Made by a program: the position numbers and the translations under genes. From IMG/VR virus record IMGVR_UViG_3300033463_000029, positions 1-64,000 of that record: DNA of 64,000 nt; one strand, given 5' to 3'. The notes beneath the pieces are model-generated. The model was not told the DNA's origin, made no database searches, and saw nothing but the letters and a program-made list of their open reading frames with translations. This document shows, in pieces, positions 18,737 through 54,360 of the stretch (the stretch's first letter is position 1; every line of letters begins with the position of its first letter). Source of the stretch: a virus. Lineage: Duplodnaviria; Caudoviricetes.

Positions 18737-19063
18737 TTATTCCTCCTTTCTTGCGGTTTTGCCAAGTTCGTAAAAGTAGCGAGCAAAATTCCTAATAGCA
18801 AGACTTTGCTCTCCATTCATTGGACCAAACGCATCATCTAATAATGTGGCCTTCTTGTTTTTTAATTCTTTATCCAGATCCACCTCCGGCTGATCCTGTT
18901 GTAGAGAGGAGACAATTGAAAGGATTTTATTGTATCCATTTAATTCTGCTTCCCATTCTTTATAGTTAGCCGCATAAAAAAGTTTAATCATTAATGATTT
19001 AAGCTCATTTTTCAACTTTTCTATTTTGCCAATCAGTTTCTCTGAGTCAATATATTTGTTCAT
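18737..19063 (-). CDS. Family B paralog (YID.EKL...SLQQ.QP..DL...AR.F.E.G..ARK)
   Basis: Shares blocks with 19277-19699 and 24433-24981. Confidence 0.8.
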   Translation of the reverse strand: MNKYIDSEKLIGKIEKLKNELKSLMIKLFYAANYKEWEAELNGYNKILSIVSSLQQDQPEVDLDKELKNKKATLLDDAFGPMNGEQSLAIRNFARYFYELGKTARKEE

Positions 19064-19276
19064 TTTTCGAACCATTTCAAAGTTTCATAATCAATTTGGA
19101 TTAAAACGGAATCCGTGCCGTTTCTATAATCCGATGCAACCATAGACAGTGTACCGTTGGAATACATATTTCCCCTGTCAACTTGAACATTTATTGCGCA
19201 GTCGTGACCGATGTCCGTGCGAATTTCCTGTAGCCTGTCAATAAGCCCGTCGAGAGTCATTAATTTATTTTCCATT

Positions 19277-19699
19277 TTAATTCTTCTTATAAACCTCTTC
19301 TTCAACTAAACTTTGTTCATCCCACGTACCTTCATCTTCGAAAGTATAAACCCATCCATCTTCTTCGTCAAACTCAACGTTTACAATTTTACCGAGAGGA
19401 TACTCTCCTTCTTCATTTGAAGTACAGATGTAATGTGCAAGAACATCACCGACATTCCACCTCGGCTTTCTCCCATGAACATATTCAGTGGACAGATAAC
19501 CGTATTCTGGTTGCTCATCCGGCTGCTCCTGCTGGAGAGAGGTGATGATGGAAATAAGTTCGTTGAGTGTTTTTATTTCCACGTCTCTTTTTATTGATGC
19601 CCCAAATTCCGCCTCAATAAAAGGGCATTCATCAATACTCTTTTTTCGCCTTTCTATCTCGGCAACTAACTTTTCCGCGTCAATGTATTTGCACTTCAT
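19277..19699 (-). CDS. Family B N-half fused to an unrelated C-terminal domain
   Basis: YIDAEKL...SLQQEQP, then diverges. Confidence 0.75.
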   Translation of the reverse strand: MKCKYIDAEKLVAEIERRKKSIDECPFIEAEFGASIKRDVEIKTLNELISIITSLQQEQPDEQPEYGYLSTEYVHGRKPRWNVGDVLAHYICTSNEEGEYPLGKIVNVEFDEEDGWVYTFEDEGTWDEQSLVEEEVYKKN

Positions 19700-20488: not shown

Positions 20489-20510
20489 CTAAATCAAATT
20501 TTCAAAACAA
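20489..20510 (-). repeat. Orphan family-A 3' end (encodes CFENLI*) behind an unrelated cargo gene
   Basis: + strand ctaaatcaaattttcaaaacaa versus family-A ctaaatcaaattttcaagacaa. Confidence 0.85.
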
Positions 20511-20897
20511 TTATCCTCCAAACTCCTTTTTAAGTTCCTCATACTGAGCCTTACGCTTTTCCTTCTCTTGGACAGCCTTTTCTTTGTTTCTCTTTTCTTG
20601 CTCAGCTTCCCATTCCTTGTTTTCCATTTCAACGATTTTGAGAAGTTTATCATTGGACATTGTGAGGAAGTCTGTCGGGAAATCTCCGTAATGCTCTTCA
20701 TGTCCACCATATCTCCAATACTCATCACCTCTCCATGCGACAGAATCACCGTCTATACTGAATCTCTCTGCATAGCAGATATCAGAGCACTCTCCGTGAC
20801 GTTTCTTGCTGTCCTTTAAGATATTGCAAACACGTTCACATTCGTTTGTAATTTTTTCGCTCAATTCGACATACTGTGTTAATTCTTCTTTTGTCAT
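20511..20897 (-). CDS. Cargo hypothetical protein between A1 and an orphan A end
   Basis: 128-aa ORF starting 2 bp after the A1 stop. Confidence 0.7.
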   Translation of the reverse strand: MTKEELTQYVELSEKITNECERVCNILKDSKKRHGECSDICYAERFSIDGDSVAWRGDEYWRYGGHEEHYGDFPTDFLTMSNDKLLKIVEMENKEWEAEQEKRNKEKAVQEKEKRKAQYEELKKEFGG

Positions 20898-20899
20898 AA

Positions 20900-21319
20900 C
20901 TAAATCAAATTTTTAAGGCAATACCTAATAGCTCTATCATATCCGCTTTCAGGATTTTCATAAACCCACCCTTGGGAAAAAGTTTCATTTGTTTTGGCGA
21001 CAACTATCTTAATGTCCCAAAGAAACTTTTCGTGATCAAGTATGCTGTCTATGATTGGTATGATGACAATTCCCTTCTCGTCCCTCAACCACTTCATTGC
21101 CATTTGAAGAGTAGGGGCGGAAATCATAATCGGACTCCATTCACATTCTGAATTAGTGTAAGTAAGTATCTGTTCACCATACCCCTCACCACAAAAAACT
21201 CCAAGTGAAGATACAAGTTGTAACTCTCCATCGTGGTAAACAGAAATACATTTTTCATCAAACCCCTTTTCCTTAAGGAGTTTCGCAGTCTCGCAACTTA
21301 CATAATCTTCTGTAATCAT
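20900..21319 (-). CDS. Family A copy 1
   Basis: MITEDYVSCETAKLLKEKGFD / APTLQMAMKWLR / AIRYCLKNLI. Confidence 0.9.
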   Translation of the reverse strand: MITEDYVSCETAKLLKEKGFDEKCISVYHDGELQLVSSLGVFCGEGYGEQILTYTNSECEWSPIMISAPTLQMAMKWLRDEKGIVIIPIIDSILDHEKFLWDIKIVVAKTNETFSQGWVYENPESGYDRAIRYCLKNLI

Positions 21320-21504
21320 ACTAAATTCTCAATATTAGAAATCGCTTTACGAATTTTTCTTACCATGTATTTTTCGCGGCTCAATTTGTTTTTATCTAAT
21401 GCCGTAAAAGATTCTTTGCTACGCAAACGTTCAACAATTGCCTCATGACGTTGTAGGGAAGCACGTTTTTTCTCTAGCTGTTCTGCTTTTTGAATGTCAT
21501 CCAT
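21316..21504 (-). CDS. Cargo hypothetical protein between A2 and A1
   Basis: 62 aa, abuts both A genes. Confidence 0.65.
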   Translation of the reverse strand: MDDIQKAEQLEKKRASLQRHEAIVERLRSKESFTALDKNKLSREKYMVRKIRKAISNIENLV

Positions 21505-21507
21505 AAT

Positions 21508-21903
21508 CTAAATCAAATTTTCAAGACAATACTTTATCGCTGCTTCGCAGGCTTCTTCATATTTTTCCCATGTTTTTGCAAACAGTTTATGATACTCAGG
21601 ATGTTTTTCCTGATATGGAATATGATACTCTCCATTAAACCAATAATTGAATATGTAACTTTCAGCTTTGCCTGTAAGTTTTTCAAAAGAAAGTGGACCT
21701 ACCGCTATATGAAAGCCATAGTTATCCCTCAACCACTTCATTGCCATTTGGAGAGTTGGAGCATTGGTTTGTCCATAATGTTTTGCACAATGGGGAAGAA
21801 ACTCAAGAGTATAATTATCATATGAGTTTGTGACTCTACCATCAAACCCTTTCTCTTTCAAGAGTTTGGCTGTTTCAAATGATACGTAATCTTCTGTGAT
21901 CAT
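21508..21903 (-). CDS. Family A copy 2
   Basis: MITEDYVSFETAKLLKEKGFD / APTLQMAMKWLR / EEACEAAIKYCLENLI. Confidence 0.9.
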   Translation of the reverse strand: MITEDYVSFETAKLLKEKGFDGRVTNSYDNYTLEFLPHCAKHYGQTNAPTLQMAMKWLRDNYGFHIAVGPLSFEKLTGKAESYIFNYWFNGEYHIPYQEKHPEYHKLFAKTWEKYEEACEAAIKYCLENLI

Positions 21904-21905
21904 AT

Positions 21906-22217
21906 CTATTTTTCTATATCAAACAACATATCTTCTGTCACATTGTAACCCCCGTCCGTATCCACACAACAGATTTCAAAGGGGTTTTCACACTCCTGTA
22001 TTTTTTGAATCAGTTCTTGTTTCAGTTCATTGATTCTTTCCTGAGTGAAATACTTTTTCCTGACAGTTTCTTCTGCTGCATCAAGTTCTTCATCAGTAGA
22101 AACAAACCCCTCTGAAGGGAAAGGTTTTGTATAGATGGTTATGTCATTGATTCTTGACAAATCCCATTTCAAGTTGCAGTCAAACACAAAGACATCATTA
22201 TCTACAAATTTCTTCAT
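21906..22217 (-). CDS. Cargo hypothetical protein between A3 and A2
   Basis: 103 aa with 2-bp gaps to both A genes. Confidence 0.7.
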   Translation of the reverse strand: MKKFVDNDVFVFDCNLKWDLSRINDITIYTKPFPSEGFVSTDEELDAAEETVRKKYFTQERINELKQELIQKIQECENPFEICCVDTDGGYNVTEDMLFDIEK

Positions 22218-22219
22218 AT

Positions 22220-22627
22220 CTAAATCAAATTTTCAAGACAATATTTAATAGCGGCGTCGACGGCTTGTTCATGGGAGTCAAATCCATTTCCCCCAATTTT
22301 GCTTGTTTTTGATTTAATCACAATGTCTTTGCTGTTATAGGTAAATTGAATTGTTGGCATATAATTTTCCGCACCAATGCAATCAACCATTATATGAAGA
22401 TTGTGAACTTTCCTCAGCCATTTTGTTGCCATTTGAAGAGTTGGGGCAGAGCATATAAACTTGTAATTTTCTTCAAACCTATTATGGTCGTCAAATTCAA
22501 TACTTGTATATTTTTCACCCCCAAATTGTGAGGTATATTCAGAATACCACACTTCACAATGGCAGTCAAACCCTTTCTCTTTCAAGAGTTTGGCTATTTC
22601 AAAGCTAACGTAATCTTCTGTGATCAT
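22220..22627 (-). CDS. Family A copy 3
   Basis: MITEDYVSFEIAKLLKEKGFD / APTLQMATKWLR / AAIKYCLENLI. Confidence 0.9.
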   Translation of the reverse strand: MITEDYVSFEIAKLLKEKGFDCHCEVWYSEYTSQFGGEKYTSIEFDDHNRFEENYKFICSAPTLQMATKWLRKVHNLHIMVDCIGAENYMPTIQFTYNSKDIVIKSKTSKIGGNGFDSHEQAVDAAIKYCLENLI

Positions 22628-22847
22628 AGTTAAAAAGAGTCTATATCATAATAAACGTGAGCCATCATCTTAGATATTTCTCCATCTCTGTCGAGAGAGA
22701 AAAACTCTTCCATGTCGGCTATTATTTCCTCTTTAGTGTGAGTTTTCTTATACTCTTCCCACTTGTCAATGGCTTCAGTCCAATGTTTAATTGTTTCCAT
22801 AATTACTCCTGTTTTATATTAAGCAAGATCCATTTCTTTTTTCTTAA

Positions 22848-22881
22848 TGCAAAGGTAATACAAAAAATAATATAAAACAAA
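22848..22881 (-). promoter_or_regulatory. Bacteroidota-type promoter (TACCTTTG) upstream of the A3-A1 block
   Basis: -7 element at 22850-22857 with TTTG at the -33 position. Confidence 0.75.
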
Positions 22882-23190
22882 TTTTCCAGAAACTTTTTTG
22901 AAAGCGCGATAGTCAATGTGATATCAGTTAGTATTATAATTTTAATTTTTGGGCATTATATATCTGTTCTCCAAAGTTATTCTATTTCAATTAAGTTATC
23001 AGAGAGTTTGATATCAAGGAAATTCGATTGCAATTTGCTGAAAATACCTTCTTTAAGAATGCCAAACTGAATATTAAAGTCATTACCAATCGTAACACAC
23101 ATACCTGTTCCTTCCCACTCTGGTTTCATATAATATTTCCCATATTGTATATTGGTAATATTCATACTATTTTCTTTGTCGCTTCTTTTG

Positions 23191-23403
23191 TCATAGCGAT
23201 TCGATTTTGTCAATTAACCCACGGAAGTATTCGTCATGTATCTTTGTGTAGTCGGAGTGAACTTCGACCATTCTCTTATGATTCTCTTTCGCCCACTCAA
23301 GCAGAGCGTCCTTGCGGATATACTCTGTCTCATCCTCAATGCCGAAGATTCCAATGTCGGAAAATAGAGCCTCATTAAATACAAGTTTGTCCGGTGCTTT
23401 CAT
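23191..23403 (-). CDS. Family D paralog
   Basis: APDK...EYIRKDALLEW...LIDKIESL. Confidence 0.75.
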   Translation of the reverse strand: MKAPDKLVFNEALFSDIGIFGIEDETEYIRKDALLEWAKENHKRMVEVHSDYTKIHDEYFRGLIDKIESL

Positions 23404-23424
23404 ATCTGTTTCTCCTTTCTTGCG

Positions 23425-23661
23425 TTAAGCATATTTTAATCGCATTCTTTCAACCCAAGCGAGTGCATCTTCTCTTGAATCAAATTCTTCATTTTCAAGA
23501 ACCCATTCTAACCATTCCTCCGTGTTGCAAAATGGACAAGGGTCATCACCTCCGATTGTTAAAACTCCATTTTCATAAGAATCTAAATCCCATAGATAAC
23601 CATCTATACAAGTGGCATCCGGATATGAAGCGCCAAAATGTGGGAATTGTATATTACACAT
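23425..23661 (-). CDS. Cys-motif phage protein (FGASYPDATCIDGYLWDLDS...CPFCN)
   Basis: Motif; likely ATG at 23661. Confidence 0.65.
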   Translation of the reverse strand: MCNIQFPHFGASYPDATCIDGYLWDLDSYENGVLTIGGDDPCPFCNTEEWLEWVLENEEFDSREDALAWVERMRLKYA

Positions 23662-24265
23662 AGCTATTACTTTTTGTGTTTTAACCGCCAATCAAGTCCT
23701 TAACTTCTGACAGTAAATCGTGTGCCTGTTCAAGATTATCTTGAAACCACGGTTCATACTCTTCAGGCTCAATAGCATCCCTAATCCTTGCGAGTTCGAG
23801 GGATATTTCTTCGACAAGAGATATTAAATTTTCAATTTTCATATCTATTTCTCCTTTCTTGCGTTTTTACCAATTATTGTATCATTAGACATATTAACTA
23901 ATTACCAGTCTGCATAAAGGCAATCTATGTAGTCTTTTGGGTTGTACCATCTGTTCGTTGAGTCTTTAATATATCCTTTATTCAAAAACTCCCTTTCTTT
24001 TTCTTTCTCTTTTTCTTTATTATGAGAAGTTTGTTCTTGATTTGTGCTATAATCATTCATATCAGGAGTTGGTACATCTCCTGTTCCTAAACATACACCG
24101 TAATCATTCATATTTTATTTCTCCTTTCTTGTATCAGTCTTCAATATAAACATACCACCACATAAACTGCCTTGTGTATCCATTGTTAAACCACCAACAG
24201 AAATCACGGCGCATCCCAAACTCCACTTTGCCAATCTTGAATCTAAAGAGATAATCACCCATATC

Positions 24266-24436
24266 TTATTCCTCCGTTCTTGAGTTAAGTTCCTCTATTC
24301 TTTTGAGCCAATATTTTTTTCTTTTCTTATTCCCCGTTGCCATCGCAACACCGAGATAATAGTGGGCATCAGCAAGCCTATGGGATATATCATCATTTGT
24401 GACGATTGTTTCCCCGTCTTTATGTTCAATAATCAT
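24266..24436 (-). CDS. 56-aa ORF ending LNSRTEE (family-B-like tail); not in the ORF track
   Basis: ATG overlaps the stop of 24433-24981; read manually. Confidence 0.55.
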   Translation of the reverse strand: MIIEHKDGETIVTNDDISHRLADAHYYLGVAMATGNKKRKKYWLKRIEELNSRTEE

Positions 24437-24981
24437 TTCTTTCTTGCGTTAAGATGAATTGATCCCCATTCAGCGAAGTGACGGGCCATTGCATCTAATG
24501 TGGTTTCGTTCAAATACTCTCTTTCATCTGTAAACGGAACTTTATACTTGATTATCTCCCTATCCAAATCCGCCTCCGACTGATCCTGATCCATCCAATC
24601 GGCATCATCGTCGTAAGTCCACCACCCATTTTCTTTGAGATAACTCCTTATTTCCGTGAGACGATTTTCCGGTATGGCATGAATGTAATTAAGCAAATTC
24701 TCCCTATAGCATTTGCCTTCATCATAAACATAATCATCTAAAACAATGGTTTCCCGAAGAGGTTTGAACGATTGCAACTTACAAATAGCATAGTTTACTC
24801 TCGTTCTTTTGTTCGGAAGTTTATTTTCCTCTGGCTGCTCCTGCTGGAGAGAGTCGATGAAGTCAAGCACCATCATCTTCATATCTTCACGACCATCATT
24901 ATAGTCGGCACTTATTTGCGGAATCAATCTAATACTTTCTATTCCAGCAATCAGTTTTTCTGCGTCAATGTATCTATTCAT
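24433..24981 (-). CDS. Family B paralog with a long insert between two QP/QS-E-x-DL modules
   Basis: YIDAEKL...SLQQEQP...QDQSEADLDRE...ARHFAEWG..LNARKK. Confidence 0.8.
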   Translation of the reverse strand: MNRYIDAEKLIAGIESIRLIPQISADYNDGREDMKMMVLDFIDSLQQEQPEENKLPNKRTRVNYAICKLQSFKPLRETIVLDDYVYDEGKCYRENLLNYIHAIPENRLTEIRSYLKENGWWTYDDDADWMDQDQSEADLDREIIKYKVPFTDEREYLNETTLDAMARHFAEWGSIHLNARKK

Positions 24982-25210
24982 ATTAAGTCTTGATAATATA
25001 CTTCAACCATGTCTTGTAAATTGTTATGTCCGCGATATGTCCGCACCCAGTACAGGAATAATTTATGTTCAATATCATCCCCAAATCTATCGCGTATTAT
25101 TTGTTTTGCGACCTCCTTTGGTTTCCTATTGCGAAACATTGCATAATCCCAATCTTGCCCGCAAAGATGAAACCTACTATAAGGTCCTCTCCTACTGACT
25201 CGTCTTATGT

Positions 25211-26257
25211 TCATAGACTATATAATTTATTGAGGTCATCATATAGTGTATTAAGAACCAAATCATCGTCACTTCTACCATACTCCGCCAAATATCCAAT
25301 GCCCTTTTTCAAAGCAATCATCTGCTCCTCACTGGGTTTCCAATGAGGCTGGTCGAGATTGGCTTCTTTTGCCGGATAAGGAGTTTCTTTACTCTTGATA
25401 TCATAGCCTCCACCCAGCACTTCATCAGGGTTAATAATGTAATCAAATTGTCCCGGTTCATCTTTGATTTTATAGCCAATAACACCGCATGGAAATTCCA
25501 TTGTTCCGTACACCTTGTAAATTTTTCCAGCATACTTTATTTTCATAGGTTCACTTTCTTGCTTTGGCTGAAGATTGAACCTTTCGGGAAGGGATTTGAG
25601 GAAATCCATTTGATTATCCGTTAGCATAGCATCATCTTGCGTAACTTCAAGCTTTCCTATTATTGCGTCGTAGTAATCCTTATCCCCATCGCTCCACTCT
25701 GCGGGCTTCAATTCCAGCTTAGCCGCATTCAAGAGCTCAGCCGAATGTTCTTTAGCCCACTGTGCCACATCTACTTCTTCTCCGTGTAAATATTGTTGCC
25801 ACCCGTCGCTAAATGCAGAAAAGAGCACGCTTTCAAAATAAGACAGTTCTGTCTCTTCGTTATCAATCTCCGTTGACTTCTGTTCTGAACGATACATTTC
25901 CGCTAATTCGCCATTATCATCCATTATACCAGCTGATTTAAGAAATTTTATTGCAGCTTCTTTATTTTTAGTTATGTCTTTGACAACATCTTCAATAGAC
26001 TTCTTTTGTTTTTCGAAGTAGGCAATCCCCCATTTATAAGCCTCAATATCTTTTTGCCTGCTGCATCCTGCTGCATCTTGTTCTTCTGCCCCCTTAAGAG
26101 AAACCTTTAGACAATCAACAAGACGTTTCCTTATCCTCTCGTCCTCACTCTCTATAGTCACGAGACCAAGGGCATGCAGTGCCTCTAAATCTTCTTCATC
26201 TAAAGCCCATTTATCAAAACGGCTTCTAACTCTTTCTATCGCTTCTTTTGTTTTCAT
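25211..26257 (-). CDS. Multi-module mosaic protein (ESEDERIRK, ELSYFE, AEWSDGD, WKPSEEQM modules)
   Basis: 348 aa; modules shared with genes at 38-43 kb. Confidence 0.75.
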   Translation of the reverse strand: MKTKEAIERVRSRFDKWALDEEDLEALHALGLVTIESEDERIRKRLVDCLKVSLKGAEEQDAAGCSRQKDIEAYKWGIAYFEKQKKSIEDVVKDITKNKEAAIKFLKSAGIMDDNGELAEMYRSEQKSTEIDNEETELSYFESVLFSAFSDGWQQYLHGEEVDVAQWAKEHSAELLNAAKLELKPAEWSDGDKDYYDAIIGKLEVTQDDAMLTDNQMDFLKSLPERFNLQPKQESEPMKIKYAGKIYKVYGTMEFPCGVIGYKIKDEPGQFDYIINPDEVLGGGYDIKSKETPYPAKEANLDQPHWKPSEEQMIALKKGIGYLAEYGRSDDDLVLNTLYDDLNKLYSL

Positions 26258-26259
26258 AA

Positions 26260-26721
26260 TTAAATCAAATTTTCAAGACAATACTTTATCGCTGATTCAC
26301 AGGCTTGTTCATAAGTGGCAAACTCGCAATATGTCCCTCTTTTGATATTATCTTCAAATGGGTGATACGACTTATCCTTATCGTTATTGTCTATAATCAA
26401 TGCAGTATACGCCTTAGGACCAGCCTTTCCAATAATAATATCTATATTATGCACATCCCTTAACCACTTCATTGCCATCTGAAGAGTAGGAGCCAAATAT
26501 CCTTCAACCTTATTATTAAGGTTATATTCATAGGCATATTGCTTAGCAGCAGCATCAACCGATTCCCTGTTAACAACTGTTTCACCTTCAACAAACCATG
26601 GTGCCCCCACAAGAGTTTGCGAATCATCATGTGATTCCCACACTTTATAGCATGGTCCATCAAACCCCTTTTCTTTAAGGAGTTTAGCCGTTTCAAAACT
26701 AACGTAGTCTTCTGTAATCAT
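26260..26721 (-). CDS. Family A copy 4
   Basis: Same three constant blocks. Confidence 0.9.
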   Translation of the reverse strand: MITEDYVSFETAKLLKEKGFDGPCYKVWESHDDSQTLVGAPWFVEGETVVNRESVDAAAKQYAYEYNLNNKVEGYLAPTLQMAMKWLRDVHNIDIIIGKAGPKAYTALIIDNNDKDKSYHPFEDNIKRGTYCEFATYEQACESAIKYCLENLI

Positions 26722-27529
26722 AATTATTTTGCATAAAAATTTATATACGGTTCTATACTAACAATTCCATAAAAAGGTTTCTTTATTCCATTCTTTTCAT
26801 CAGAAAAAGTTCCCGGAATCACCTTCATTAAAAACCCCTTCTCGCTAGTACCATCAGCCCATTCATATGGGTCTTCACAATCAATCTTGTTTAAATGCTG
26901 TTTCACAATCTCTGACACTATATGGGCATCAAAGTCAAAGGGGTATTTCTTCCACTCTTCATCATCACCCCATCCAAGACAGTATTTTCCATCTTTTGTT
27001 ACTTGGTAGGAAATGCCACTCTTGCCTATTCCGTGCATATCTATGGCGAATTTGATTGTCGGCTCCAATTGATCCATTGTGCCAGACACTTCAAAAACCT
27101 GTTCGCTTGAAAACATAATCTATTTACATTTTATTTTTTCTATTGTAACAATTGTTTCATGACATTTTTTGCAAATATAACAATTCGCTTGAAATTCAGG
27201 ATGATGCATCATTGGCGTCGGCAACAAGTAGTCGTAGTTTTCTCCAGTCTTGTTATGCCAATACTCAGCACCTTGAACCCATTCGTGCTTACAAGGAAAT
27301 AACCAATATCTTATTTTTCTTAATATTGACATCTGGCTATATTTCTTCATCGGTGTCCGATATCTTGCCGTAGTCTCCGTCTAATACATGGTTACATTCT
27401 TCCGAGATATCCTCAACCGTACATTGTGTAAATGCATCAGCATTATAATTTTTATTATTAATCAATAAATCGCATTTATGAACAATATATTTCATCAGCG
27501 ATAATAGTTCTTTTCGAGTCATATATACT

Positions 27530-27967
27530 TCATCTCATTTTTTCAAGCAAATGTATGATCGCATCTTCTTCCGCTTCCTCCGGCGTGTCGAATCCTTTCA
27601 CATTATAACAGGTTGATTCGTCGCACCATTTTACCGTTTCTGTGTTTACCATTACCCAATAATACTTCGCAATGTTAAACTTGTTCGATATACTATGGTT
27701 TGTGATTCTGATTTCAATATGAACATTATATTTTTCCCTCAACCATTTCTTTACCCTTTGCACATTTGGGGCATAGCATAAAAACTTATAAGATTCATTA
27801 AATCTATTTCTATCATCGAATTGGATATTGATGTATTTTCTGTCTCCTGAAGGATCACCTCCCCATGCTGACGTGTATTCAGCATACCATATTTTACAAG
27901 GTTCATTAAACCCATTCTCTTTGAGGAGTTTAGCAATTTCAAAGCTAACGTGGTTTTCTGTAGTCAT
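27530..27967 (-). CDS. Family A copy 5 (divergent)
   Basis: MTTENHVSFEIAKLLKENGFN / APNVQRVKKWLR / EEAEEDAI. Confidence 0.85.
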   Translation of the reverse strand: MTTENHVSFEIAKLLKENGFNEPCKIWYAEYTSAWGGDPSGDRKYINIQFDDRNRFNESYKFLCYAPNVQRVKKWLREKYNVHIEIRITNHSISNKFNIAKYYWVMVNTETVKWCDESTCYNVKGFDTPEEAEEDAIIHLLEKMR

Positions 27968-27981
27968 AATTTAAATCAAAT

Positions 27982-28218
27982 TTATCTTGTAATATTATCG
28001 TCACGCTTTCCCCATAATTTACGCTTGAATGTTTCAACCTCGTCTTTATTGGTTGCAGTTAAAGCCATTATTAATGCTATAGTATTAACCAAAGGTAATA
28101 TTAGAACAATTACAGATATCGGGCTTGGGTCAATATTTCTGTATGCATACGTGACAGCTAAAACTAATACGCTTAGGAGATAAATTACTAATCCTATTCC
28201 AAATATTAATGGTATCAT
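27982..28218 (-). CDS. Cargo membrane protein followed by an orphan A 3' stub (27971-27983)
   Basis: Two hydrophobic helices; ttaaatcaaattt follows its stop. Confidence 0.65.
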   Translation of the reverse strand: MIPLIFGIGLVIYLLSVLVLAVTYAYRNIDPSPISVIVLILPLVNTIALIMALTATNKDEVETFKRKLWGKRDDNITR

Positions 28219-28220
28219 AA

Positions 28221-28625
28221 TTAAATCAATTTTTCAAGACAATATTTTATTGCTGCTTCACATGCTTTTTCAAAAGATGTTTCATCACAAATGGCTACGC
28301 AGTAATAGTCATCAACATCTTCTGTATGATATAGGCTGGACTTCCGTTTAACCTTATATATGTCAGCTGTTATCCAATAATAGTCGGTAAAACTCAGTCT
28401 CGGATGAATAGCGATGAACAAATGATGTTCTTCTCTCAACCACTTCATCGCCATTTGAAGGGTTGGGCACATCACAGAAGATAGAGCACAGTCGGAATTT
28501 GACATCATTTCACCGTTCTCGTGTATTTCCCCAGTACCGCCATACCAAACGCGACATAATTCATCAAACCCCTTTTCCTTCAGGAGTTTGGCTGTTTCAA
28601 AACTCACATAATCTTCTGTAATCAT
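28221..28625 (-). CDS. Family A copy 6
   Basis: Same three constant blocks. Confidence 0.9.
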   Translation of the reverse strand: MITEDYVSFETAKLLKEKGFDELCRVWYGGTGEIHENGEMMSNSDCALSSVMCPTLQMAMKWLREEHHLFIAIHPRLSFTDYYWITADIYKVKRKSSLYHTEDVDDYYCVAICDETSFEKACEAAIKYCLEKLI

Positions 28626-28633
28626 TTCACAAT

Positions 28634-29026
28634 TTAATCTTTATCGATCCATAATCCATACTTCTTTGTGAAGTCATCGAACAGTTTTTCAATAACTTTA
28701 CCGAATACATGATAGTGGAAATTATCTGCTTCTTTAGAAGGCTTCGGACGATTATCGTATCCTTCAAACTTATGTTCATAAAGGATTGTTCTTACCTCCT
28801 GAATTACATTTGCATCTATAATGAACTGTTCGTAATCAAATCCGGGTTCATTGAATTTATCCTTCAGAAACCACGTAAGACCATCAACACAAGGAAGGCA
28901 ATCTATTTCACTATACCATTCTTCTTTGTTTTTCTCACTCTGTTTCTGATAATATTCAATGTCAAACATAACAAAACCCCTTGTGTTTTGATTATCTTTT
29001 GGTGTGTATCCTAAATAATATGTCAT
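28634..29026 (-). CDS. Cargo hypothetical protein between A7/A-remnant and A6
   Basis: 130-aa ORF. Confidence 0.7.
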   Translation of the reverse strand: MTYYLGYTPKDNQNTRGFVMFDIEYYQKQSEKNKEEWYSEIDCLPCVDGLTWFLKDKFNEPGFDYEQFIIDANVIQEVRTILYEHKFEGYDNRPKPSKEADNFHYHVFGKVIEKLFDDFTKKYGLWIDKD

Positions 29027-29053
29027 TTGTTTCTGAGTTTAAAAATTGAAAAG

Positions 29054-29086
29054 CTAATCAAAACTAACGTAATCTTCAGTTATCAC
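29054..29086 (-). pseudogene. Orphan family-A 5' end (VITEDYVSFD*)
   Basis: GTG ATA ACT GAA GAT TAC GTT AGT TTT GAT TAG, 2 bp after the A7 stop. Confidence 0.85.
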
Positions 29087-29088
29087 AT

Positions 29089-29421
29089 CTAAATCAAATT
29101 TTCAAGGCAATATTTAATAGCCGCTTCGCAGGCTTCTTCGTAGGTAGGATATGAGTCAAGAGTATCAAATGGTAATCGTTTATCCTTAAATATTAGGACT
29201 GAGTAACCATTTTTTCTATCAGGAGTCACTGATGTATCAATGTTATGGACGTTCCTCAGCCACTTCATCGCCATCTGAATAGTGGGAGCATATACACCGT
29301 CCGGAGACTCCTGATCATAATCAGGTTCAGGAAAGAACTTCATAGTTTTGCATTCCCAGTCAAACCCCTTTTCCTTCATGAGTTTGGCGGTCTCGAAACT
29401 AACATGGTCTTCTATTATCAT
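29089..29421 (-). CDS. Family A copy 7
   Basis: MIIEDHVSFETAKLMKEKGFD / APTIQMAMKWLR / EEACEAAIKYCLENLI. Confidence 0.9.
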   Translation of the reverse strand: MIIEDHVSFETAKLMKEKGFDWECKTMKFFPEPDYDQESPDGVYAPTIQMAMKWLRNVHNIDTSVTPDRKNGYSVLIFKDKRLPFDTLDSYPTYEEACEAAIKYCLENLI

Positions 29422-29605: not shown

Positions 29606-30028
29606 CTATTCAGTTTTAGTTTTATACATTCCTTCCTTTGCTTCAAGAGCAAGACCCATAGGAATAAGTCCACGATGGTCAAAATGATGGGAGTTAAGAA
29701 ACTCTTCCTTATGGGTTACAGGGGTAAATTTATATTTTTTTCCTGCCCACACAAACGATTTTTCATCTTCCAGACAAGCATCGCAGTATTCCACCCATTC
29801 TTTACTGGTCATAGTTGACATCGAGCGAAGATAAGGCTTCACCTCTTCAATAAGGGGAGAACCCGATGTCATTGACATGAACGGCTTGAGTACAGTGACT
29901 CTACCGAAACCGATATCGATTATATTGTAATCTTCGCCATGCCACTGGACCATAAGTCCATAATACGGCAACCTTGCACATAAATCGATATAAAGAAGAT
30001 CCTTATCTTCGTCAGTCATCTTTTTCAT
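29606..30028 (-). CDS. Family C paralog
   Basis: DLCARLPY...KPYLRSMSTMT...HFDHRGLIPMGLALEAKEGMYK. Confidence 0.8.
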   Translation of the reverse strand: MKKMTDEDKDLLYIDLCARLPYYGLMVQWHGEDYNIIDIGFGRVTVLKPFMSMTSGSPLIEEVKPYLRSMSTMTSKEWVEYCDACLEDEKSFVWAGKKYKFTPVTHKEEFLNSHHFDHRGLIPMGLALEAKEGMYKTKTE

Positions 30029-30743: not shown

Positions 30744-31178
30744 TTACTTATACATCTGTTCTGGAGCTTTGATTGCGAATCCTTTTTCGATCCATCCGCG
30801 ATAATCGAGACGATGCTTGTTATAAAAATCTATTTCAAACGCACTTGCCGCAGCACCTATTATTGTATGACCAGACTCTTCCGACTCCAAATGTTTAAGC
30901 TCAATCTCAAGAACTTGTTTAAACTCGTATTCTTCTTCATCTGTTATACTAGACAGCGGTCTAAGATACATTTTAACAGTAGCACCACTGTCAATAAATT
31001 CGCAAACATCATCAATGCTAAAATCTTGGCACATATCTCCTTTCGCGTAACCTCCAACGACGCCTTCTATTATGCGTTCATCGAGCGGGGAGTTTGGGTC
31101 ATATACTTGTATATTGACTCCGTTTGCCAACCGAGCACAAAGATCTATTATAAAAATCTCCTTATCCTCTTTTGTCAT
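30744..31178 (-). CDS. Family C paralog (divergent)
   Basis: DLCARL...YLRPLSSIT...LDYRGWIEKGFAIKAPEQMYK. Confidence 0.75.
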   Translation of the reverse strand: MTKEDKEIFIIDLCARLANGVNIQVYDPNSPLDERIIEGVVGGYAKGDMCQDFSIDDVCEFIDSGATVKMYLRPLSSITDEEEYEFKQVLEIELKHLESEESGHTIIGAAASAFEIDFYNKHRLDYRGWIEKGFAIKAPEQMYK

Positions 31179-53133: not shown

Positions 53134-54360
53134 TTAAACGTTACAGTTTTCAAGTATTCTTTTGAGAGCAGGAATAAACCTGTCATCATATTCATCATCA
53201 ACCTTTGACACAAGAAAATAGTCTGAAACCTCTTTCTTTGATGTGCCGTCTTTGTCAATGAACGTTGAATCACAATAAAGACTATCCACGGGAATCGAAT
53301 CAACTTCAACAAGGAACAGATGCATATCCTTATGCTTCAGATACTGGTGAACGCCGAGATCAACGAAAGAATCTTTCATCTCTGACAAATCGAGACCGGT
53401 CTCTTCTCTGCATTCTCTTATGGCTGTGTCTATGTCTTCTTCTCCGACATTCGAGCATCCCTTTGGTAAGTCAATGAGTTTGAATGAACCGGTTGGTCTA
53501 CACGCCAAAAAGAAACCGTTCTTATCACGAACAACAACACCACACGTTATCAGTCTTCCTTCAGGTGTTGTTTTCAAATTTTCAAAGCTACCGCTTGGTT
53601 TTTCTTCAACAAAATTGATTCGTTTCTCAATATAGTTTCTTCCTGCTTCTTTGAACACGGGAATTTCGTAATCAATGTGCCAGCCGGTATCCCGCTTAAC
53701 GCAGCACACCCCATATTTATATCGCTTTTCAAGAGTCTCCCAATTAAAGTTCTTTTCGGAAATCATCATCTCCTTAAGGACTTTGGTATTCTTTCCGTTA
53801 AGCTGTTTCTGGCTGTAGAAACTTTGTGCGCAAGAAAGAATCGAATTCCTTATTGCATCTAGCTGCCTCCACAGAACACAATTTGTAACCTCCTCAACGG
53901 GAACGTTAAATGCGCGGCAATCAAAAACAGCTAGTTTATTTGCAGATGTTTTATATCTGTCATCAAGTGATGTCGAAACGTTTTGCCTAAACGCCTCGTT
54001 AAATTTTACTGATGCTAACGCGGCCGCAATTGAACACATCTTTTGAGCTTCATAGTCAAACCATGCATCAGACTCAAGCGTCTTGTAATCTACGAGCACA
54101 AGAGTTATTTCGTCAGACTGCGTGTAACCCAGAACACACCCCTGAATATTTTCGCAGAGATATTTCATTGTCTGGTGCATCGCGTCGGCGAACAGTTCAT
54201 CAAATGGTTTCTTAAACCCGTGTGTAAAAGTGTGAAAACTTTTCCCATCGAGCCTCATTATAACTGGCGTTCTACGGGAAAGATAAGTTCTAGACCTCAT
54301 TTCATAATAGGTCTTCATTCTATTTCCAAGTGCATCGTTTTTCATATTAGAATGATACAT
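53134..54360 (-). CDS. Thg1-like (tRNA-His guanylyltransferase, 3'-5' polymerase) domain fused to a Nudix hydrolase
   Basis: RLDGKSFH.FT, YTQSDEITL, FDCR, WRQLDAIRNS; Nudix box PKG....GEEDIDTAIRECREETGL. Confidence 0.92.
   Translation of the reverse strand: MYHSNMKNDALGNRMKTYYEMRSRTYLSRRTPVIMRLDGKSFHTFTHGFKKPFDELFADAMHQTMKYLCENIQGCVLGYTQSDEITLVLVDYKTLESDAWFDYEAQKMCSIAAALASVKFNEAFRQNVSTSLDDRYKTSANKLAVFDCRAFNVPVEEVTNCVLWRQLDAIRNSILSCAQSFYSQKQLNGKNTKVLKEMMISEKNFNWETLEKRYKYGVCCVKRDTGWHIDYEIPVFKEAGRNYIEKRINFVEEKPSGSFENLKTTPEGRLITCGVVVRDKNGFFLACRPTGSFKLIDLPKGCSNVGEEDIDTAIRECREETGLDLSEMKDSFVDLGVHQYLKHKDMHLFLVEVDSIPVDSLYCDSTFIDKDGTSKKEVSDYFLVSKVDDEYDDRFIPALKRILENCNV

Follow-up and report, generated by a model that had tools for sequence, protein, structure and literature searches.

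The DNA analysed here (hereafter the window) comprises the first 64 kb, positions 1 to 64,000, of the 135-kb IMG/VR virus record IMGVR_UViG_3300033463_000029 (Duplodnaviria; Caudoviricetes), whose completeness is estimated by CheckV at 25%. Between 8.5 and 48 kb, the window is occupied by a nearly unbroken run of small minus-strand genes, among which lie seven intact minus-strand paralogues encoding proteins of 110–153 amino acids (aa), here termed family A (A1–A7). A profile built from the seven proteins recovered exactly those seven from the 135-kb record (E 3e-39 to 4e-63), and no further family-A copy was found there by this search. Each protein is organized into three constant blocks (C1, C2 and C3) separated by two variable segments (V1 and V2), with the following layout.

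20900..21319, minus strand: A1, 139 aa (C1 21260-21319; V1 21116-21259; C2 21083-21115; V2 20951-21082; C3 20903-20950)
21508..21903, minus strand: A2, 131 aa (C1 21844-21903; V1 21760-21843; C2 21727-21759; V2 21559-21726; C3 21511-21558)
22220..22627, minus strand: A3, 135 aa (C1 22568-22627; V1 22445-22567; C2 22412-22444; V2 22271-22411; C3 22223-22270)
26260..26721, minus strand: A4, 153 aa (C1 26662-26721; V1 26491-26661; C2 26458-26490; V2 26311-26457; C3 26263-26310)
27530..27967, minus strand: A5, 145 aa, with the most divergent constant blocks (C1 27908-27967; V1 27770-27907; C2 27737-27769; V2 27581-27736; C3 27533-27580)
28221..28625, minus strand: A6, 134 aa (C1 28566-28625; V1 28467-28565; C2 28434-28466; V2 28272-28433; C3 28224-28271)
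29089..29421, minus strand: A7, 110 aa, the shortest copy (C1 29362-29421; V1 29287-29361; C2 29254-29286; V2 29140-29253; C3 29092-29139)

C1 spans residues 1–20 (MITEDYVSFETAKLLKEKGF), C2 is an 11-residue stretch, PTLQMAMKWLR, encoded by 33 nucleotides (nt), and C3 forms the C-terminal 16 residues (EEACEAAIKYCLENLI). The constant blocks are 73–95% identical among A1–A4, A6 and A7, and those of A5 are 52–64% identical to these. V1 (25–57 aa) and V2 (38–56 aa) display only 12–33% identity between copies, which corresponds to noise level, the sole exception being the V1 of A3 and A5. A preliminary description of this DNA had proposed this arrangement of three constant blocks flanking two variable segments, together with a V1 common to A3 and A5 next to different V2s; both are borne out, the A3/A5 pair being 52% identical in V1 and 19% in V2. 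It had further ascribed a shared V2 start and end to A4 and A7. The V2s of these two copies are only 33% identical, and the motifs in question, VHNI.. after C2 and ..TYE before C3, extend the constant blocks throughout the whole family (consensus KWLREVHxxxI ... YEEACEAAIKYC) and hence provide no evidence for a shared module.

The relationship between the two variable modules was analysed in 220 clean family members, collected from 75 viral loci and a protein search and cut at the block boundaries. V1 and V2 identities were uncorrelated (Spearman 0.03), with 1306 discordant pairs combining V1 identity of at least 60% with V2 identity below 30%, and 232 pairs showing the reverse. Module types defined by single linkage at 50% identity comprised 92 V1 types and 122 V2 types in 186 combinations, with 33 four-gamete quartets, and a table of four V1 types by five V2 types was nearly full. 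The adjusted mutual information between V1 and V2 types amounted to 0.07, where shuffled labels give 0.00 ± 0.02 and complete linkage would give 1. Approximately unbiased (AU) tests on the V2 tree rejected every V1 type as a clade, with log-likelihood differences (dlnL) of 97–455 and p values of 2e-5 to 1e-59. As the main sample is biased towards common V1 types, we additionally searched with the V1 of A4 alone; across all 38 database clusters carrying it (74–100% identity), 29 different V2 types were present. V1 and V2 thus have strongly incongruent histories, contrary to the congruence that the preliminary description had associated with simple duplication and drift, as indicated by the lack of correlation, the four-gamete quartets, the AU rejections and the 29 V2 types on one V1.

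Re-pairing can also be followed for individual copies of the window. A2 and its relative P0030 are 98% identical in the constant blocks and 96% in V2, with 16% identity in V1. The V1 of A3 is 93% identical to that of P0013 (V2 23%), and its V2 is 89% identical to that of P0119 (V1 15%). The V2 of A6 recurs at 93–94% identity in P0118 and P0108, whose V1s are unrelated (24–32%), and that of A7 at 92% amino-acid and 90% nucleotide identity in L068:10001-10357, where the V1 is unrelated. The V2 type of A1 is paired with the V1 type of A4 in P0087, and the A1 V2 itself is 74–77% identical in nucleotides to sequences of L003, L004 and L008, all of which have unrelated V1s. Within single genomes, module types were repeated in one of 98 pairs for V1, namely A3/A5, and in none of 98 for V2. 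An avoidance of repeated types within genomes was considered, and the pattern proved indistinguishable from random draws out of a very large pool.

Breakpoints were examined in 133 members with DNA, using high-identity high-scoring segment pairs (HSPs; at least 80% identity over at least 120 nt). The HSPs end 0–5 nt after C1, 3–4 nt before C2, 1–23 nt after C2 and 5–13 nt before C3, such that similarity breaks at the constant-block edges, in support of the earlier proposal of crossovers in these blocks. The most common shared units are the upstream gene with C1, C1-V1-C2, C2-V2-C3 with downstream sequence, and C3 with the downstream gene. Among the 38 DNA pairs sharing V1, V2 and the downstream flank were each shared in one pair and the upstream flank in none. 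In discordant pairs, the replaced module exhibited 41–52% nucleotide identity, compared with a baseline of 45.5 ± 5%, and the HSPs ended at block edges. This lack of residual DNA similarity in the replaced modules excludes compensated frameshifts as the origin of the "unrelated" modules. Collectively, these comparisons indicate that V1 and V2 exist as hundreds of discrete types each, reassorted almost randomly relative to each other and to the neighbouring genes, an evolutionary reading in which we place high confidence.

Two mosaic cases illustrate the process at nucleotide level. The V1 of A1 is 98% identical in nucleotides, with a 135-nt perfect run, to that of L002, a gene of a complete 392.8-kb phage; outside V1, C1 and C2 are 80% and 64% identical, respectively, and V2 is unrelated. 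This pair is the product of a recent single-module swap. The second case, L020:6864-7325, is a three-way mosaic that joins the gene upstream of A2 (95% nucleotide identity) to an A4-type V1 (90%) and a third V2.

Isolated pieces of constant blocks were also detected at gene junctions in the window.

29054..29086, minus strand: orphan C1 start, consisting of GTG plus nine codons (VITEDYVSFD) followed by a stop; blastn-short 96% over 28 nt, E 1e-8
20489..20510, minus strand: orphan C3 end (..CFENLI plus stop); 96% over 23 nt, E 8e-6
27971..27981, minus strand: 11-nt stub ATTTGATTTAA (C3 end plus stop) between gene 27982-28218 and the A5 start, too short for significance on its own

The orphan C1 piece begins 2 nt past the A7 stop, upstream of an unrelated gene (28634-29026), and the orphan C3 piece lies directly after the stop of another unrelated gene (20511-20897), ending 2 nt before the next ATG. 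Located at junctions with unrelated genes, these pieces look like scars of insertions or crossovers within C1 and C3. In six of the seven copies (ends at 20900, 21508, 22220, 26260, 28221 and 29089), the next start codon follows 2–3 nt past the stop; after A7 it is the GTG of the orphan C1 piece, and in the other five it is ATG.

A 62-aa gene located between A2 and A1 (21316-21504) is retained, at 87–91% nucleotide identity, between two family-A genes of L007 (5948-6947). One of these flanking genes has a V1 and V2 unrelated to those of A2; the other has an unrelated V1 and a V2 resembling that of A1 at 69% nucleotide identity. The retention of this gene between differing family-A copies indicates that intervening genes are also units of exchange.

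Selection was assessed separately for modules and constant blocks. Within module types, dN/dS was 0.15 for V1 and 0.12 for V2 at dS of 0.7–1.1, values that are biased downwards by the choice of pairs with at least 60% amino-acid identity. This purifying selection within types indicates that the modules are conserved cassettes and not drifting spacers or fast loops. In the constant blocks, dS reached 1.3 among the window paralogues and 1.6–2.0, i.e., saturation, across the family, with dN of 0.10–0.18, and synonymous-site entropy amounted to 77% of that of background codon usage. Saturated dS together with this entropy implies that the constant blocks are kept by protein-level selection; recent gene conversion as the source of their identity is ruled out by dS of 1.3–2.0. 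By the same measure, the paralogues are old. A few synonymous sites are unusually fixed, including L14 (CTC), G19 (GGG), F20 (TTT) and the last C3 codons (GAA AAT TTG ATT TAG). These sites, along with the abutment of C3 on the next start codon, hint at an added DNA- or translation-level constraint, and the C3 end may double as the translation-initiation context of the following gene.

AlphaFold2 models were generated for two copies, A4 from a mixed alignment and A5 from alignment rows sharing its V1 or V2 type. The constant blocks have a predicted local distance difference test (pLDDT) score above 90 in both models. The variable parts of A4 were poorly predicted; the A5 model reached an overall pLDDT of 81.7 and a predicted template-modelling score (pTM) of 0.74. 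Secondary-structure elements in the A5 model comprise a helix at residues 9–17 (C1), strands at 27–33, 43–49 and 60–65 (V1), a helix at 69–80 (C2), strands at 82–89, 101–108 and 113–117 (V2), and a helix at 129–144 (C3). The predicted architecture is a compact α/β fold, α-βββ-α-βββ-α, in which three conserved helices alternate with two three-stranded β-meanders formed by V1 and V2. The preliminary description had envisaged a common fold formed by the constant blocks, which are indeed the confidently predicted part, and a small scaffold displaying two swappable inserts. Of the latter, the swapping is retained; the variable parts, however, are modelled not as displayed loops but as β-meanders constituting half of the fold.

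Structural comparison did not identify a known fold. The C2-V2-C3 half aligns to many double-stranded RNA-binding domains (dsRBDs; Z 4–5.8, root-mean-square deviation ~3 Å, ~65 residues), with 6q2z giving the best alignment (Z 6.5); by the tool's own scale, all of these scores denote no more than a common arrangement. Among the full-length rows from Foldseek, the best were tandem-dsRBD proteins (E 0.03), and matches in BFVD were limited to uncharacterised phage proteins. In dsRBDs, RNA is contacted through a basic motif, a KKxAK-type start of helix 2. Helix C3 of family A begins with EEACEAAIKYC, and no dsrm Pfam match was obtained for the seven copies or 120 members. The proteins are acidic (median pI 4.9, net charge −7), with the charge borne by the V modules, and this acidity together with the EEACE start of helix C3 makes dsRNA binding unlikely.

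Other candidate assignments were considered. Phage_ABA_S (PF18066), a phage α-β-α sandwich domain with no assigned function, resembles family A as a small phage α/β protein with an N-terminal helix ending in G-aromatic, and it emerged as a weak feature-space lead in the atlas (score 0.76; family present in 15% of the members of that cluster). Its hidden Markov model nevertheless produced no match for the seven proteins at E ≤ 1, for the 120 members, or in the record at E ≤ 10 (gathering threshold 27 bits), so that by sequence family A does not belong to it. In the comparison with the α-β-α sandwich fold, the Bacillus cereus phage protein 1r7l_B aligned with Z 4.6 over 79 residues (model residues 8–152), within noise. 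A four-cysteine zinc site is not supported, the cysteine positions being 43–88% conserved with no consistent co-occurrence.

All seven proteins match phrog_12005, a group of unknown function (E 1e-9 to 2.2e-15); the match covers approximately positions 2–127 of 137 in six copies and stops at 97 in A5. A family profile search yielded at least 7999 significant matches among the 8000 candidates scored, and an exhaustive search of 1.84 billion representatives clustered at 50% identity retrieved 16,291 clusters at E ≤ 1e-3, with 5,131 at E ≤ 1e-10. No published description of the family was found in the literature searched. Viral contigs reaching 412 kb carry relatives, as do contigs binned into metagenome-assembled genomes from the ruminant gut (RUG and RGIG isolates; rumen, omasum, abomasum and colon). 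Complete relatives of 361–412 kb contain 4–12 copies each, arranged in a few clusters. A 328,867-bp contig also carries these same family-A proteins; a megablast search of the window region against GenBank phages returned no match. Distant single copies, all annotated as hypothetical, are present in the cultured Bacteroidota phages Flavobacterium FpV4 and Fpv3, Cellulophaga phi18:3 (gp024), a Bacteroides cellulosilyticus phage and a crAss-like phage, a distribution that fits a Bacteroidota host.

Several relatives deviate from the single-unit architecture. P0121, P0122, P0173 and P0303 (262–296 aa) contain two family-A units in tandem and are probably read-through fusions of adjacent copies. 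In P0338 (359 aa), a GNAT acetyltransferase is joined to a family-A part. Split or partial matches were found at G005:C1:366999-367349 (model positions 1–33 and 47–133) and G004:C1:60089-60445 (model positions 1–32 and 67–133), which suggests broken copies or copies without a slot.

In 19 of 38 long relatives (P0311, P0313, P0328 and 16 more; 285–308 aa), the V1 slot contains an in-frame HNH_3 domain accompanied by NUMOD4. Behind it come another C1-like helix of degenerate sequence (VKLLFEKGY), a short V1, C2 and V2s of diverse type. The position of HNH_3 and the duplicated C1-like helix suggest that homing-endonuclease breaks near C1 help drive exchange. In our proposed mechanism, the constant blocks, whose coding sequences are short and of low degeneracy, would recombine with one another both between paralogues and between co-infecting phages, probably helped by double-strand breaks introduced by the HNH homing endonuclease. 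RecA-family matches were detected in four complete relatives, strong only in G005 (418 bits; 29–31 bits in the others), and none was found in this 25%-complete record; a search for RecT found no match. At the protein level, the helix residues that do not vary, most of them charged, would serve to dock a shared partner or to maintain the fold, the two independent β modules would confer specificity, and each phage would carry 4–12 two-module combinations as a repertoire. Most plausibly, these proteins would act early and inside the cell, as binders or inhibitors that take part in an arms race against factors of the host.

The functional part of this proposal, like the binders with anti-defence or host-takeover roles suggested in the preliminary description, is tentative. 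That the proteins are intracellular binders or inhibitors, whose constant face meets a common partner or holds the fold while each V module recognises a variable target, is a possibility suggested by several features: the charged and presumably exposed residues of the helices have hardly changed over saturated divergence; the β modules V1 and V2 are acidic and are shuffled independently of each other; every genome has several copies that form a repertoire; and the long block of small genes around them resembles those in which other large phages keep their early genes. The explanation that we favour as a whole, and regard as probable, is that the seven genes belong, as paralogues, to a very large family of Bacteroidota-phage proteins, small and acidic, which is greatly expanded in 290–410-kb ruminant-gut phages and in which two modules are reassorted by exchange at the constant blocks; more tentatively, the products would form a repertoire of binders.

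Several points weigh against this explanation. The 220-member sample, obtained from profile and pattern searches, leans towards common V1 types, and this was corrected for one module only. Breakpoints at block edges are reported by any alignment method when adjacent modules are unrelated, so exact crossovers are resolved only in single cases such as A1/L002. Within the window, module sharing is confined to the A3/A5 pair, and reassortment is therefore documented mostly in relatives. No HNH_3 gene was found in the 135-kb record, itself 25% complete. As regards function, Pfam matches of the seven proteins and of 120 members all stayed below threshold, at noise level, a profile search against PDB sequences gave nothing, and Foldseek and VIA-align searches with the two AlphaFold2 models disclosed at most a generic dsRBD-like α-βββ-α arrangement (Z ≤ 6.5).

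A more far-reaching version, which we consider rather doubtful, would assign three roles to the same three helices: they would make up the unchanging half of the fold, offer the surface that docks a common partner, and act at the DNA level as joints for recombination or homing endonucleases. Hundreds of V1 and V2 modules would then be re-paired without interruption across the phage metapopulation, leaving each phage with a private set of 4–12 inhibitors directed at host defence or at targets of host takeover. An unlikely alternative holds that the constant blocks matter mainly as DNA: a selfish array of cassettes, in which neighbouring "cargo" genes are shuffled, would use them as recombination joints or as targets for homing endonucleases, and the family-A proteins would have little function in their own right. 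It would account for the reassortment of neighbouring genes at C1 and C3, which is no less free than that of V1 and V2, for the orphan C1 and C3 pieces at gene junctions, for the presence of HNH endonucleases behind C1 in relatives together with the duplication of a C1-like helix, and for the fixed synonymous sites at L14, G19, F20 and the last C3 codons. Against it, saturated dS (1.6–2.0) with dN of 0.10–0.18 and 77% entropy in the constant blocks places selection chiefly on the protein; moreover, the V modules evolve at dN/dS of 0.12–0.15, the seven open reading frames (ORFs) are all intact and fold confidently, and distant single-copy homologues persist in small phages without arrays.

We regard it as quite improbable that the proteins are immunity-like or superinfection-exclusion factors, i.e., a "polyimmunity" set directed against polymorphic toxins or effectors of competing phages or hosts, with one combination per toxin. 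Small, acidic, hypervariable proteins in heterogeneous tandem arrays would be in keeping with such a set, and Imm25 (PF15564) gave weak sub-threshold matches in eight of 120 members (best E 0.013). These matches nonetheless fall under the Pfam cut-off, none of the seven window copies matches, and a scan of neighbouring genes revealed no toxin domain. Tandem duplication followed by drift, with conserved constant blocks and two unconstrained loops diverging without exchange, is refuted and retains hardly any probability. The window taken alone would be compatible with it, as the paralogues are old (dS 1.3) and neither six of the seven V1s nor any of the V2s can be aligned with one another, but modules of 40–57 aa recur at 75–100% identity in many partnerships (quartets, AU tests, 29 V2 types), evolve under purifying selection, and in one case share a 135-nt perfect run within an otherwise diverged gene. 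Finally, although the relatives all derive from metagenome assemblies and the constant blocks are repeats, chimeric assembly joined at these blocks is a negligible explanation, because constant-block DNA is only ~65–90% identical between copies, with exact runs far below assembler k-mers, identical mosaic proteins occur on up to 10–16 independent contigs from several sources, and reading frames remain intact.

The genes surrounding family A offered few functional clues. None of ten genes neighbouring the family-A copies matched a Pfam family or contained a toxin domain, and Pfam and PHROG scans of the neighbouring "cargo" genes and large ORFs were uninformative apart from one protein. This protein (53134-54360, minus strand; 408 aa) is a fusion of a tRNA-His guanylyltransferase (Thg1-like, phrog_4717, E 6e-82) and a Nudix hydrolase domain. 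Two further families of small paralogues are interleaved with family A, located at 18737-19075, 19277-19699 and 24433-24981, and at 29606-30028 and 30744-31178; one is of the form (K/R)YIDAEKLI...SLQQEQPE and the other ...DLCARLP/A.... The 5' part of 29606-30028 is matched by many loci at 75–89% over ~80 nt. Both families may accordingly follow the same conserved-end pattern as family A.

The favoured explanation bears on a sizeable body of phage sequence. Its scale is given by 16,291 clusters at 50% identity and by near-free module assortment across a 33-nt joint, and the seven genes with their relatives amount to a natural combinatorial protein library. If these proteins are specific binders or inhibitors, they would make up a large and so far unexploited set of phage counter-measures in Bacteroidota of the rumen and gut. 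They would also constitute a natural minimal two-site binding scaffold and a tractable system for measuring recombination in phage populations and the part of homing endonucleases in it. Even if their function is mundane, the family accounts for a substantial share of the "dark" hyperplastic genes in these huge phages.

Family A can be set against several systems that generate diversity. It differs from the target of a diversity-generating retroelement, in which a reverse transcriptase and a template/variable repeat pair produce adenine-directed point variation, in that its variation consists of whole-module replacement with conserved modules (dN/dS 0.12–0.15); for a reverse transcriptase, the 25%-complete record yielded only a sub-threshold RVT_1 trace of 12.9 bits, 90 kb away. 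In antigenic variation, for example by Neisseria pilE/pilS, variable minicassettes framed by conserved blocks are recombined, with one expressed locus and silent, promoterless partial copies as donors. Family A likewise has variable minicassettes framed by conserved blocks and recombined into new combinations; in contrast, each of the seven copies is a full ORF that has its own start codon, the copies are densely packed on a single strand with only two short orphan pieces besides, and different phages have exchanged modules.

In gene arrangement, the closest parallel is provided by the promoter/stem-loop (PeSL) cassettes, which mediate modular shuffling in hyperplastic regions of T4-type phage genomes (Arbiol et al. 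2010, PMC2839356; Comeau et al. 2014, PMC4122927). In both cases, short conserved repeats run through arrays of small variable genes, most of them of unknown function, and serve as joints for loss, gain and exchange, and the genes upstream and downstream of family-A genes also reassort, at C1 and C3. PeSLs, however, are non-coding and intergenic, whereas the family-A joints are coding blocks under protein-level selection, with exchange occurring also inside the gene.

The T-even adhesin gp38 offers the nearest known likeness in principle, within a single gene: between conserved glycine-rich motifs, thought to form its structural core, lie segments of hypervariable sequence that determine specificity (Trojet et al. 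2011, PMC3157838), and genetic exchanges within or near these motifs, as related in the same account with reference to Tetart et al. 1996 and 1998, give chimeras with new combinations. Family A shares this alternation of conserved motifs and hypervariable segments, with exchanges at the motifs, but has no sequence or fold relation to gp38. Its constant blocks are helical and not glycine-rich, and its variable parts are folded β modules of 25–57 aa instead of omega loops. The gp38 protein is a single adhesin, encoded at a tail-fibre locus and carrying an N-terminal tail-fibre attachment domain, whereas family-A proteins are small, multi-copy (arrays of 4–12) and presumably non-virion, encoded in a block of small unknown genes and shuffled near linkage equilibrium across hundreds of types. 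Sub-genic shuffling at conserved motifs has been described for a few proteins of the virion, T-even gp38 and tail fibres among them; here it is encountered in a multi-copy family that would act outside the virion.

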